The notes under the pieces are model-generated. The model did no database searches. It was given only the letters and a program-made list of their open reading frames with translations, and was not told where the DNA came from. Shown piece by piece: positions 2,885 through 7,265 of a stretch of DNA of 16,819 bases. A program made the position numbers and the translations under genes. Position 1 is the first letter of the stretch. The number at the start of each line of letters is the position of its first letter. Origin of the DNA: a virus; the UHGV virus genome UHGV-0353285, one strand, 5' to 3'.

Positions 2885-3213
2885 TGACCACAGAAACGTA
2901 TAGCCCGGATGATTTTATTCTGGGACCCGATCTTGTTGTGACGACCGTCGGTCATTTTCAGGGCGGGATCAACGTACCCCGGCTGACACCGATTATGCTC
3001 GACGCTACTGCCGGGACGTTTAAAGTCTGGGACGGCTCAATTGGTAAGGCGGTTGGTCTCACAGCCACAGCAGTTAATACAGGCTCCAGTTCTGCAGACT
3101 GCTCGTACTACAAATCAGGATCGTTTCGTTATACGGCGATTAACTGGGGTACGGTTACTGACGTCGCTAAACGCAAATCAGCGTTTGCTGGTACGCCAGT
3201 CAGCGTTGGCTGA
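2884..3213 (+). CDS. Head decoration protein (lambda gpD-like)
   Basis: 109-aa ORF between protease and major capsid genes. Motifs LTPIMLDAT...KVWDG...YYKSGSFRY...AFAGT resemble lambda gpD (110 aa). SD AGGGGA upstream; start overlaps the upstream stop (TAATG). Confidence 0.8.
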   Translation: MTTETYSPDDFILGPDLVVTTVGHFQGGINVPRLTPIMLDATAGTFKVWDGSIGKAVGLTATAVNTGSSSADCSYYKSGSFRYTAINWGTVTDVAKRKSAFAGTPVSVG

Positions 3214-3234
3214 TAGCAAAAAAAAACTCAAAAC

Positions 3235-3259
3235 AAGCCGCCTCCGGGCGGTTTTTTTA
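3235..3259 (+). terminator. Rho-independent terminator-like hairpin between decoration and major capsid genes
   Basis: Stem CCGCC (3238-3242), loop TCCG, stem GGCGG (3247-3251), followed by T7 (3252-3258) and preceded by an A-run (3218-3226). Likely partial or attenuating, since the capsid gene follows in the same operon. Confidence 0.55.
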
Positions 3260-3273
3260 TACAGGATATATAA

Positions 3274-4308
3274 ATGAGCGATTCGTTTACTACGTCAGAA
3301 CTGATTACCGCAACGCAGCAGGTATTTAAGTTCAATCCGTTGTTTTTAAAATTGTTTTTCCGTGAGACCTACACGTTTACGAGCGAAGAGGTTTTTCTGG
3401 ATAAAATCCCGGGCAAAGTCAATATGGCGGTATATTGCGCCCCGATGATCACCGGCAAAGTTGACCGCACTCGCGGCTATTCAACGAACCACTTTAAACC
3501 GGGTTACACGAAACCGAAACACACGATCAATCCGAATATGAGCATCAAGCGCGCCGCCGGTGAGCAAATTGGCCAGCCAGAAACGCCGGTCGAACGTCGT
3601 GCAAAAATCATCATGCAGAATTTGCTCGACGAGGAGCTCAGCATCAGCCAGCTCGAAGAGTTCCAGGCAGTGCAGGCGGTTCTGTACGGTAAATACACCG
3701 TTTCCGGCAGCAATATCGAGACCTATGAGATCGACATGAGCCGCAGCGCGACGAATAACGTCACTCAGTCCGGTTCGACCGCCTGGTCGACTCAGGACGC
3801 GGAAACGTATGACCCGAGCGACGATATTGAATCCTATGCAGACCTCGCCTCCGGTGCGGTTAACGTGATCATCATGGACGGTAAAGCCTGGAAGCAGCTT
3901 AAACGCTTTAAAAAATTCTGGACGGCACTGGATACGCGCCGCGGCTCAAACAGTCAGCTCGAAGTCGCGCTGAAAAACCTGGGCGATGTCGTTAGCTTTA
4001 AGGGCTATTACGGCGACACGGCGCTGTTCGTTTACAAGGGTCAATATATTGACCCGCTAATAGGCACTGAAACGCGTTATATGCCGGATAACACGATGAT
4101 CCTGGGCAACACAAAAAATCGCGGGCTCCGCACCTATGGCGCGATCCAGGACGAGGACGCGCTGAAAGAGGGTATCTGCGAAGCCACGCGCTATCCAAAA
4201 GTGTGGACGACGACCGGCGATCCGGCAGTGACGCAAACAATGACGCAATCCGCGCCAGCAATGGTCCTCACCGACGCTGATGCGTTCGTCGTCGTAAAAA
4301 TCGCGTAA
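3274..4308 (+). CDS. Major capsid protein (lambda gpE-like)
   Basis: 344-aa ORF. Strong resemblance to lambda E across the length (FKF.PLFL.LFFRE, PGYTKPKH, IIMQN..DEEL.I.Q.EE.QAV.AVL.GKYT, TYDP.DDIE.YA, DTRRGSNS.LE, RGLRTYG.IQD, RYPK.W.TTGDP). AGGA SD upstream. Confidence 0.92.
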   Translation: MSDSFTTSELITATQQVFKFNPLFLKLFFRETYTFTSEEVFLDKIPGKVNMAVYCAPMITGKVDRTRGYSTNHFKPGYTKPKHTINPNMSIKRAAGEQIGQPETPVERRAKIIMQNLLDEELSISQLEEFQAVQAVLYGKYTVSGSNIETYEIDMSRSATNNVTQSGSTAWSTQDAETYDPSDDIESYADLASGAVNVIIMDGKAWKQLKRFKKFWTALDTRRGSNSQLEVALKNLGDVVSFKGYYGDTALFVYKGQYIDPLIGTETRYMPDNTMILGNTKNRGLRTYGAIQDEDALKEGICEATRYPKVWTTTGDPAVTQTMTQSAPAMVLTDADAFVVVKIA

Positions 4309-4330
4309 GAGCCGAAGGCTCTTTTTTTTA
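4306..4330 (+). terminator. Rho-independent terminator-like hairpin after the major capsid gene
   Basis: Stem AGAGCC (4308-4313), loop GAA, stem GGCTCT (4317-4322), then a T-run (4322-4329). Overlaps the TAA stop of the capsid gene. Confidence 0.6.
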
Positions 4331-4340
4331 AGGAATTAAC

Positions 4341-4760
4341 ATGAGCACAAAAACAGAATTGCTGGCGCGCATTGACGATTTGAGCGCCCAGCTCGGTCGC
4401 GAATTACCGCGCAGCGGGACTATTGCTGAACTGGAATCAATCGTCGCCGGCGCTGAGTCAGAGCTCGATATTCTGAACGAGCAATCTGGTGACGCGGGAG
4501 GCATCGAGATCACGGTGAATGCTGCGCCCGGGACGGATAGCGATCTCGCTCAATCAATCGCGAGCGCTATCGTTTCACAGTCACAAGAACCGGAGCTCGC
4601 ACCGGCTACGCACCGCGTTAAGCTGCGAAACACGCTGGACGTTTATCACTACGTGAACGGGCGTCGCGTTCGCGAGATTGTTGCTGCTGGCCGGGAAATT
4701 GTTGTTGATTCACCGGAGGTTGCAGACCTCATCGCAGCTGATCACGTTTACGCGCTATGA
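4341..4760 (+). CDS. DNA packaging / head assembly protein, lambda FI-like
   Basis: 139-aa acidic ORF in the position of lambda FI. The N-terminus (MSTKTELLARIDDLSAQLGREL) resembles the start of lambda FI as I recall it. AAGGA SD upstream. Confidence 0.55.
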   Translation: MSTKTELLARIDDLSAQLGRELPRSGTIAELESIVAGAESELDILNEQSGDAGGIEITVNAAPGTDSDLAQSIASAIVSQSQEPELAPATHRVKLRNTLDVYHYVNGRRVREIVAAGREIVVDSPEVADLIAADHVYAL

Positions 4761-5137
4761 GCTACTACGATGACCTCCGGGCTGGCGACGAGGAGATGAT
4801 CCGTGAGTGGGGACGGCCCGTTAAATTACGCGGTAAAACCGACCCCATTATCGCTATTTTCAACGAGCCTTACGCGCGCGTTGACGTTCCTCACGCTGGT
4901 TTTATTACCGGTACAGTAACGAGCCTGACAGCGCTCTCAGACGACGTCGCTGGCGTTGTTGCGCGTGACGTTGTCCAGGTCCCAAAGCAGCGCAGTATCG
5001 CTGCTGACGGCTCTGTTACCTGGTCTGACTGGACCGATTACGTGGTTAAAGAGCCTCAACCGGATGGCATCGGTCTCACGAATATTTTTTTAGAGCCTCA
5101 CACGTCCAGCGAAAACAGCGAGTATTCAAAATACTAA
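4757..5137 (+). CDS. Putative head-tail joining (head completion) protein, FII-like by position
   Basis: 126-aa ORF with start overlapping the FI-like stop (ATGA). Assignment is by synteny with lambda FII and small size; sequence resemblance is not confidently recognised. Confidence 0.4.
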   Translation: MSYYDDLRAGDEEMIREWGRPVKLRGKTDPIIAIFNEPYARVDVPHAGFITGTVTSLTALSDDVAGVVARDVVQVPKQRSIAADGSVTWSDWTDYVVKEPQPDGIGLTNIFLEPHTSSENSEYSKY

Positions 5138-5157
5138 GTGGGACCGCGGTCCCACTT
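5136..5157. repeat. 22-bp perfect palindrome AAGTGGGACCG/CGGTCCCACTT
   Basis: Read directly: aagtgggaccgcggtcccactt, a perfect inverted repeat centred on a CCGCGG core. It overlaps the stop codon of the FII-like gene and has no downstream T-tract. Confidence 0.6.
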
Positions 5158-5168
5158 AAGGGGGAACC

Positions 5169-5849
5169 GTGGCCGATTTACGTAGTAACGCGCAGATGTT
5201 CGATATCGATGTTTCGGCGCTGGAGCAGCTCAGAGTCGAAATCAGCGCGACGCAACATCAGATGCTGATGGCATACAACAGAGCGCTGAACCGAACTGCA
5301 AAGTATATGCACCGAATTTCAGCAGGAATGATTTTGACTGCACTGGCAGCTAAAAATCATAAGGCCGTAAATAAACGAATCAAACCGTTCATTAAGCGCC
5401 GCAATTTTACAAAAGAAGGGGCAGGAGATCTGAGTAGCGTAAAACTCTGGTACGGCCTGAACGATTTCCGTGTATCTGAGCTAAAGGGGCGATTACAAAA
5501 TCCCAGGAAGCAGAAGCAGCCTCGCAATCCAGAGACCGGTCAATTTTTGAAAACAAAAAAAGGCGCTCGAGGGGCGGCTTTTACACCCAAAAGTGCAGGG
5601 CTGGCGATGATGAGTTGGCCAGATTCATTCGTAGCTAAGCGCTACGGTGCGAAAAGTGTCTGGATTCGGCTGGCTCGCGGAGGAATCGAAGAGGCTCGCG
5701 TACCTGTGCACGACGCGCTGGAGGATGCTATCGATGATTATATTTTTGAAAACATTGGCTCTGTTTTTATGGGCTTTTTTGAGAAAGATTTACGCGGTCG
5801 AGTGAAAGGTAATGTCCACGTAGACCCAAAAACAGGGAAACGATTATGA
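5169..5849 (+). CDS. Putative tail completion protein (lambda gpZ-like), basic
   Basis: 226-aa ORF with GTG start preceded by AGGGGGA. Lys/Arg-rich with loose resemblance to lambda gpZ and in the equivalent position after FII. The functional call is tentative. Confidence 0.4.
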   Translation: MADLRSNAQMFDIDVSALEQLRVEISATQHQMLMAYNRALNRTAKYMHRISAGMILTALAAKNHKAVNKRIKPFIKRRNFTKEGAGDLSSVKLWYGLNDFRVSELKGRLQNPRKQKQPRNPETGQFLKTKKGARGAAFTPKSAGLAMMSWPDSFVAKRYGAKSVWIRLARGGIEEARVPVHDALEDAIDDYIFENIGSVFMGFFEKDLRGRVKGNVHVDPKTGKRL

Positions 5850-6382: not shown

Positions 6383-7265
6383 ATATGCTGCAGCGGAGAA
6401 CGCGCGCAGGCTGCGTGACGCAGTTAAACGAGGCACGATAGCTGCAGTTAAAATGAATCCTCCCCGCTGCCGAGTCTCATTTGGTGGCGAACACCAGTCA
6501 GGCTGGCTGCAGTGGTTTACTCACGCCACCTCAGAACGCGTCGACTGGAGCGCACCATCAGTGGGCGATCCCGTTACTGTTGTTTCTGAGGGTGGGGACA
6601 CGCGGAACGGCGTAGTTATGCTCGGGCTGCACATTGACAACAAAGCTCCGCCCAGTAATGACCCCCATGATCATGTCACTGCATACTGTGACGGGGCTAC
6701 GATGACGTATAACACAAAAAATCACACTCTGACATGGCAGGGCGTACCGGACGGCGTAGTAAAAATACTCGGTGAGTCTGAAATAGAAATATTCGGACGT
6801 GCAGACGTTACTATTAATAGCGAAAACGTTGTCAATATTCACGGTGGAAAATTAATTAACGCAGACGCTGACATTATTAATGTGACAGCAACAGACACAA
6901 TTAACGCACATGCTGATTTAGTGAACGTTATAGCAACGAGTTCTGTTAGTGTTACTGCTGCGAACAGAATATCGCTGACAGCTCAAACAATCAGTGCGTG
7001 GGCTCCGGGTGGGATAACACTAGCTGGTCCAACTCATATTACCGAGACATTAGTAGTAGATAAATTAGCGACATTCCGTAACGATATTTCTGTCACTGGA
7101 GATAACGGTGGAACAGGTAATATCACAACCCGCGGTAGTGTGTTAGCAGGGCAAGAGGTACGGGACCGACAAGGCACAATGAATGAGATGCGTATTACAT
7201 ATAACGGGCATACGCACATATGCCCTGACGGAGAAACAGAGAAACCAAATCAACCAATGGCGTAA
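6363..7265 (+). CDS. Baseplate central spike / assembly protein V (P2 gpV-like)
   Basis: 300-aa ORF. The N-terminal domain has the gpV-type signature (RCRV..GG...GWLQW..HA......W.APSVGD.V). The middle is a beta-helix-like repeat region (INADADIINVTATDTINAHADLVNVIATSSVSVTA). The C-terminus carries a His-rich apex (YNGHTHICPDG). Confidence 0.85.
   Translation: MAQSDDEYAAAENARRLRDAVKRGTIAAVKMNPPRCRVSFGGEHQSGWLQWFTHATSERVDWSAPSVGDPVTVVSEGGDTRNGVVMLGLHIDNKAPPSNDPHDHVTAYCDGATMTYNTKNHTLTWQGVPDGVVKILGESEIEIFGRADVTINSENVVNIHGGKLINADADIINVTATDTINAHADLVNVIATSSVSVTAANRISLTAQTISAWAPGGITLAGPTHITETLVVDKLATFRNDISVTGDNGGTGNITTRGSVLAGQEVRDRQGTMNEMRITYNGHTHICPDGETEKPNQPMA

Follow-up and report, generated by a model that had tools for sequence, protein, structure and literature searches.

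Why does a long, perfect inverted repeat lie at the boundary between the head and tail genes of a phage, and does it act as RNA, as a binding site for a protein, or not at all? We address this in the window, by which we mean the whole stretch of DNA analysed, 16,819 nucleotides of the virus genome UHGV-0353285 (features in Table 1). A first-pass annotation had placed a 22-bp palindrome at 5136-5157, and AAGTGGGACCGCGGTCCCACTT is found there as claimed, the perfect symmetry running one base further on each side to give 24 bp (TAAGTGGGACCGCGGTCCCACTTA, 5135-5158). The palindrome had also been described as overlapping the stop of the FII-like gene, as lying shortly upstream of a GTG start and as lacking a U-tract, all of which we confirm: the 24-bp form holds the entire TAA (5135-5137), 10-11 nt separate its end from the GTG at 5169, a start also used in the RefSeq annotation, and the + strand shows no T-run after it. 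No other palindrome in the window is as long, the runner-up measuring 18 bp, and a half-length of at least 12 was reached in 2 of 500 dinucleotide-preserving shuffles of the window. A second perfect palindrome of 18 bp (GGGTCAATATATTGACCC, 4038-4055, within the major capsid gene) may be due to chance, because half-lengths of at least 9 arose in 44 of 500 shuffles. The stretch GGGACCGCGG at 5141-5150 is similar to GGGAACCGTGG at 5162-5172, as is TAAGTGGGA-CCGCGG to TAAGGGGGAACCGTGG; the 5' arm thus looks copied from the stop/Shine-Dalgarno/start region, which may hint at the origin of the segment.

Table 1. Features at and around the palindromic junction, in window coordinates.
Feature	Position	Strand	Remarks
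Perfect palindrome TAAGTGGGACCGCGGTCCCACTTA	5135..5158	.	Longest in window; 2 of 500 shuffles as long
SopB (F-type ParB) box TGGGACC-GC-GGTCCCA	5139..5154	.	16/16 consensus match
22-bp presence/absence segment	5135..5156 (equivalently 5139-5160)	.	TAAG direct repeats 5135-5138 and 5157-5160
FII-like head-closure gene	4757..5137	+	PF05354 Phage_attach, phrog_82 head closure Hc1
Shine-Dalgarno AAGGGGG of next gene	5158..5164	+	Adjoins palindrome; read from sequence
Tail-completion/Neck1 gene, GTG-initiated	5169..5849	+	phrog_27, E = 1.8e-42
Predicted alternative RNA helix	5132..5184	+	MFE structure of 5110-5190

The gene order bears out the first-pass reading of this place as a head/tail module boundary, with lambda-type capsid E, FI and FII/head-closure genes upstream, and the Neck1/tail-completion gene, baseplate V/W/J genes and a phrog_1072 gene downstream. 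Identity profiles against eight relatives gave 95-99% over 5000-5299, the variable patches lying elsewhere, at ~4500-4600 and 5300-5500. The palindrome was therefore rejected as a mosaic breakpoint, identity being 95-99% across the junction, which is a functional head/tail boundary and not a recombination breakpoint. The region is 95-97% identical to a prophage in 451 of 5,426 complete E. coli genomes, four vB_EcoM-* phage records also match it at 95-97% identity, and all 453 places that match the 2.1-kb junction region are chromosomal, none being on a plasmid. In strain TUM13936 the element spans ~47 kb from a tyrosine integrase beside tRNA-Leu through to yecA and encodes CI/Cro-type regulators, RepO, a replicative helicase, a Q antiterminator and lysis genes, after which come the lambda-like head and contractile tail genes of the window. 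The host element is an integrated lambdoid prophage at tRNA-Leu with a tyrosine integrase, and the late operon should therefore be read under Q antitermination. A promoter scan around the junction returned none on the + strand, with counts at shuffle level. A classical intrinsic terminator (AAGAGCCGAAGGCTCTT followed by TTTTTTT, 4307-4323, T-run to ~4330) stands directly after the major capsid gene (3274-4308), and a stem-loop is annotated in the corresponding position of N15. Within the FII-like gene, positions 4772-4805 match, at 34 of 34 nucleotides, a CRISPR-annotated feature of E. coli ZF8-1 (NZ_CP178597.1, 1060616-1060649), a natural spacer that appears to target this gene in the phage family of the window.

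The core of the palindrome has the sequence of a known protein-binding site. Positions 5139-5154 read TGGGACCGCGGTCCCA and match the consensus of SopB, the ParB protein of plasmid F, TGGGACC-PuPy-GGTCCCA, at 16 of 16 positions. The SopB site in sopC is a 16-bp inverted repeat (TGGGACCACGGTCCCA in the sopC2 probe, PMC3597684), and its consensus was defined by Pillet et al. 2011 (PMC3177203), who found that specificity is set by the 16 bp alone with zero contribution from bases outside, that arm positions 2, 4, 5, 6 and 7 and a Pu-Py centre are required, that an A-to-G change giving a G-C centre binds like the consensus in vitro, and that centres other than Pu-Py lose about half of the binding signal (PMC3177203). 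In the window all five of these arm positions are intact and the centre is G-C, a Pu-Py dinucleotide. By our own arithmetic, the chance of such a match anywhere in 16.8 kb is ~1.6e-5, and the chance that a given perfect palindrome would have these arms and a Pu-Py centre is ~3e-5. From the published specificity rules, we strongly infer that the site would be competent to bind SopB. The box is F-type and not N15-type, because arm position 3 is G and not C, and the N15 sequence TGCGACC..GGTCGCA is not what is found here. The three roles proposed in the first-pass annotation were an RNA stability or processing hairpin, a translational coupling element for the GTG-initiated gene and a protein-binding operator; the last comes nearest, given the 16/16 SopB box, though which protein would bind had not been recognised.

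The setting of the box differs from that of known centromeres. It is single both in the window and in the whole prophage (a 68-kb region), even at up to 3 mismatches, and SopA and SopB were absent from the window and ~68 kb of the full prophage, as judged by tblastn with F-type and N15 proteins and by annotation. With one box and neither SopA nor SopB, the prophage therefore has no need for the site in cis. A sopC-type centromere consists of at least 3 tandem 43-45-bp repeats by sopA-sopB on a plasmid, and an N15-type dispersed centromere has several boxes on a replicon that encodes its own SopAB and persists as a plasmid; the window, with a single box in an integrated element, has neither, and it qualifies as a SopB box only, because there is one box and no sopA/sopB. 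The likeness to F sopC thus lies in the full consensus fit, including the specificity positions and the Pu-Py centre, whereas sopC-type loci hold 3-17 tandem 43-45-bp repeats beside sopAB on a plasmid, and the window has a lone chromosomal box within a prophage late operon, where binding is predicted from sequence. Tandem sopC-type arrays occur only on plasmids according to Pillet et al. (PMC3177203), and our literature search found no paper mentioning the 14-mer core in a prophage.

The same box is found on plasmids and on phage-plasmids. A weak BLAST match led to the E. coli plasmid pJNE23-001_1, in which TGGGACCGCGGTCCCA is part of a tandem repeat with 43-bp spacing, ~180 bp away from a parB/sopA pair, the boxes being identical to that of the window. 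In E. coli, matches to a 48-nt junction query were limited to the prophage family of the window and a few plasmid sopC-like arrays; a repeated E. coli element was rejected, as the two places per genome are a self-match of the palindrome on both strands. A degenerate pattern search of viral contigs found many genomes with several copies of GTGGGACC-NN-GGTCCCAC, these multi-copy contigs having 2-9 copies of TGGGACC-NN-GGTCCCA each, and they are N15-like linear phage-plasmids, because they encode homologues of the N15 protelomerase (TelN) and RepA. One N15-like contig (L003) holds the exact 22-mer of the window, there followed by a T-run. Contigs of the window type and of a diverged lineage (L031, see below) had one site each in whole-contig pattern scans. 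Across 43 GTGGGACCNNGGTCCCAC 18-mer sites the centre is Pu-Py in 81%, against 25% expected, and the GTGGGACCNNGGTCCCAC pattern was found in 35 stretches; two control palindromes of matched composition were found in 10 and 21, and never in multiple copies. The IR1-IR4 sites of N15 belong to a sister type, TGCGACC-NN-GGTCGCA, one site being annotated as a putative stem-loop terminator; F-consensus sites scattered over the genomes of three phages are noted, without analysis, by Pillet et al. (PMC3177203). Boxes in head-gene spacers are not unique to the window, because another lambda-like head module (L092) has two boxes 45 bp apart in its E-FI spacer. That spacer is the same spot at which the window has its post-capsid terminator.

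The N15-like genomes therefore share with the window isolated palindromic boxes on a phage genome with lambda-like head genes, there scattered, often intergenic and annotated or usable as stem-loop terminators, and the F-type sequence itself occurs on N15-like contigs. They differ in that the boxes of N15 proper (TGCGACC..GGTCGCA) have another specificity, and in that N15-like phage-plasmids have 2-9 boxes with their own sopAB, protelomerase and RepA, whereas the prophage of the window combines a lone box with an integrase and lacks sop genes. The phage-plasmids themselves hold further variety: boxes of the form TGGGGCC..GGCCCCA, with a symmetric position-5 change, lie at 6771 and 13898 of the N15-like L096, a hybrid box (TGGGCCCCGGGTCCCA) lies at 2132 of L093, and both types may represent further Sop specificity classes. 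One SopB box in N15-like phage-plasmids falls within the repA coding sequence, where it encodes GGTVVPL (L079 1846, L084 4360, L129 7742), the same place as IR1 of N15 (L138, 33480). An 83-kb contig (L060/L070, IMGVR_UViG_3300012078_000004) has nine consensus F-type boxes in ~27 kb and a distant S49 protease homologue, and is probably a phage-plasmid of larger size whose centromere boxes are dispersed.

Conservation at the junction had been proposed as a check on any function, and the outcome is divided: the element is present in most close relatives, yet it is precisely absent from one relative at 94% identity and absent from others at 84% and 70%. We collected thirteen distinct junction sequences from viral, metagenomic and genomic collections, a limited sample of the diversity, because the genome-contig scan gave one locus and the metagenome scan twelve. 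In the 94%-identical relative (L046, by its Neck1 gene) the junction reads AATACTAAGGGGGAACCGTGG, the sequence of the window minus exactly 22 bp, and the junction is also empty in L042 (E. whittamii) and L035; from the exact 22-bp difference the element is a presence/absence segment bounded by TAAG repeats. Relatives at 88-97% identity keep the element with a different interior: the centre is GC (as in the window), GT (which fits Pu-Py) or TC (which does not), and the arms show a C-to-A change at left-arm position 6 (GGGAAC), or a C-to-T change at right-arm position 2 together with the loss of one T. In the L031 lineage (~74% protein identity) a symmetric A-T to C-G change has produced another palindrome, also perfect, GTGGGCCCGCGGGCCCAC, and a sister of this lineage has an imperfect version. 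In L037 (67% identical) a textbook terminator, GCGGGCTTGCCCGC followed by T8, occupies the same junction; the Neck1 homologue of L037 is split (3001-3683, open-reading frames 3001-3399 and 3441-3683) by a frameshift or a sequencing error.

Among complete E. coli genomes 446 of 452 junctions are filled, so that 446 of 5426 genomes (~8%) carry a filled junction, of which only 17 match the window exactly across 48 nt, most having a single mismatch. The commonest E. coli haplotype, which includes an ST131 example, has the TC (Py-Py) centre, at which about 50% of SopB binding is expected from the published rules. The symmetric change of L031, at position 5, should abolish binding of F SopB; it could, as a speculation, mark another ParB specificity (N15 differs at position 3, L096 at position 5). 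Judged by their junction sequences, the relatives show no clear selection to keep SopB binding, because the Py-Py centre dominates, required arm positions are altered and the box is dispensable, L046, L042 and L035 doing without it. F-type sopB itself is present in 2257 of 5426 complete E. coli genomes (42%), almost always on plasmids.

Our preferred reading, to which we give a probability of roughly 60%, is that the palindrome is built around an orphan centromere box for F-type SopB (ParB), of the kind found in sopC repeats and N15-like dispersed boxes, acquired from phage-plasmids or plasmids. For this known kind of SopB site a prophage late operon is an unusual setting, and any function of the box there is hypothetical; it could also be neutral. 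The absence of sop genes, the single copy and the weakened or empty junctions of relatives speak against the reading. The most likely origin would be exchange with phage-plasmids or plasmids, whose boxes also occupy intergenic, hairpin-like spots. Should an F-type Sop system be present in the same cell, SopB would be expected to dock as a dimer on the paired TGGGACC arms, and this one box would suffice to seed a SopB complex midway along the late operon. In published work relayed by Pillet et al. (PMC3177203), one sopC repeat was sufficient to assemble a functional partition complex, and a SopB complex would for this reason be expected on the box in Sop+ cells. The outcome might be sequestration or titration of SopB leading to centromere incompatibility, late transcription that is impeded by a roadblock or modulated, or use of the plasmid partition system by the excised phage genome. 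Incompatibility is the expected effect of SopB binding at wrong positions, again as relayed by Pillet et al. (PMC3177203), and SopB complexes can silence neighbouring genes. In cells without SopB the box would be a transcribed hairpin only and may be a neutral passenger.

That the segment currently does nothing in any context, being a neutral palindromic indel that recombination or template switching/slippage left behind and drift has kept, is possible, though we consider it unlikely. Slippage across hairpins typically produces such a presence/absence pattern with TAAG microhomology, several haplotypes carry damage in the box, in the stem or in both, and the prophage encodes no partner gene. 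The element nevertheless persists at one position across lineages as far apart as ~74% protein identity, the two changes in L031 are symmetric, and the filling of 446 of 452 E. coli junctions sits poorly with drift; an intact consensus box, moreover, could hardly be inert in the 42% of genomes that encode SopB.

Somewhat less probable again is that the element works as an intercistronic RNA hairpin after the FII stop, protecting the head mRNA from 3' exonucleases or acting as a weak pause or terminator that sets the head:tail ratio, its SopB match being coincidental. The isolated hairpin has 10 pairs (-15.7 kcal/mol), at least 8 pairs are kept in all filled haplotypes, and in the commonest centre variant the loop of the transcribed strand reads CUCG. 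The L031 lineage has the both-sided change, from A-U to C-G, and two further changes give G.U pairs. Over eight haplotypes 96% of cells are paired, yet this single covariation event is not significant, as 61 of 500 shuffles do as well; the stability or processing hairpin of the first-pass annotation has in its favour a stable stem and one compensatory pair that falls short of significance. The junction of L037, with its classical GC hairpin and T8 terminator, and the classical terminator 3' of the capsid gene of the window also speak for the hairpin reading. The palindrome resembles a Rho-independent terminator in being a GC-rich stem-loop at a head/tail junction, but it is not an intrinsic terminator: the + strand after the hairpin reads AAGGGGGAACC, there is no U-tract on the transcribed strand, and in the full prophage the operon is governed by the Q antiterminator, which speaks against a role in termination. 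The close relative L046 does without the hairpin, an RNA hairpin needs neither a self-complementary loop nor an exact SopB consensus, and an Rfam scan of 4800-5500 on both strands (E <= 1) gave zero matches.

The hairpin reading draws further on the G4-type microviruses ID11 (L140, AY751298.1, 2563-2580) and Lilleput (L141, MK629525.1, 2438-2456), which have an identical 18-mer, GTGGGACC(GC/AC)GGTCCCAC, as their J-F hairpin in the region of the leaky terminator TJ. The TJ of phiX174/G4 is a leaky terminator that stabilises the upstream mRNA, its disruption speeding mRNA decay, and the 18-mer of ID11 and Lilleput, like that of the window, comes directly after a stop codon and directly before the Shine-Dalgarno sequence of the next structural gene. 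The microvirus hairpin is, however, followed by the U-rich UCUAUUU and that of the window by AAGGGGG, and microviruses, which are ssDNA phages, are not known to have any connection with Sop, so the sequence of a SopB box can exist as a plain RNA or ssDNA hairpin. The match may be a coincidence or have a shared cause, ~0.5 chance matches being expected in that database by our own arithmetic.

A translational-coupling switch, the remaining role of the first-pass annotation, we regard as improbable. Here the 3' arm would pair either with the 5' arm or with the G-run/GUG of the Neck1 gene, masking the start unless a ribosome terminating at the TAA melts the helix. The predicted minimum free energy structure of 5110-5190 is indeed a long helix (5132-5184, -27.7 kcal/mol, z = -3.2) with the stop codon in its 5' strand, and the start codon is predicted to be unpaired with a probability of 0.00 in GC-centre haplotypes vs 0.63-0.64 in empty-site relatives. 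In the L006, L031 and L033 haplotypes, however, the palindrome hairpin is favoured, which leaves the start codon free, and the long helix lacks compensatory changes, with 500 of 500 shuffles pairing at least as well. It exists because TAAGTGGGA-CCGCGG resembles TAAGGGGGAACCGTGG, so that it stems from local similarity between the 5' arm and the Shine-Dalgarno/start region and is lineage-specific. A helix masking the Shine-Dalgarno sequence and GUG was thus rejected as a conserved device, the structure being neither conserved among relatives nor supported by covariation, and what is left of the coupling claim is sequestration predicted in silico for the haplotype of the window. Finally, a terminator for antisense transcription, with the minus-strand hairpin followed by UAUUUUGAAU, is very improbable and was rejected: the terminator scan does list a minus-strand site (11 pairs, 5 T in 8), but its T-run is dictated by the conserved C-terminal codons TCA AAA TAC (SKY*), of which it is the reverse, it is present in relatives without the hairpin and displaced by 4 nt in L031, no minus-strand promoter or dependent gene was seen downstream, and terminator-like sites occur at shuffle level.

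If the orphan SopB box is more than a passenger, it could functionally link a widespread E. coli prophage with F-type plasmids, a proposal we make very tentatively and think doubtful: SopB from a plasmid in the same cell might silence or tune the late genes, the plasmid thereby modulating induction, excised or replicating phage genomes might use plasmid partition, or phage DNA in multiple copies might titrate SopB and destabilise the plasmid, and the weakened TC variant that dominates in ST131, a group rich in F plasmids, would then reflect selection against interference. The high sequence specificity of SopB is thought, in the account of Pillet et al. (PMC3177203), to stop partition complexes from forming at wrong sites, and a consensus or near-consensus box is present in ~8% of complete E. 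coli chromosomes while F-type sopB is present in 42% of genomes. Were SopB to load at the box, the stability of F plasmids would be affected, as would the reading of ParB_F ChIP and imaging in natural isolates, and the expression of prophage late genes may be affected too; were SopB absent from the box, or its loading without effect, the element would be a hairpin that the phage can spare and that matters little. As the present case illustrates, a perfect palindrome inside an operon can be a borrowed plasmid centromere box instead of an RNA signal.
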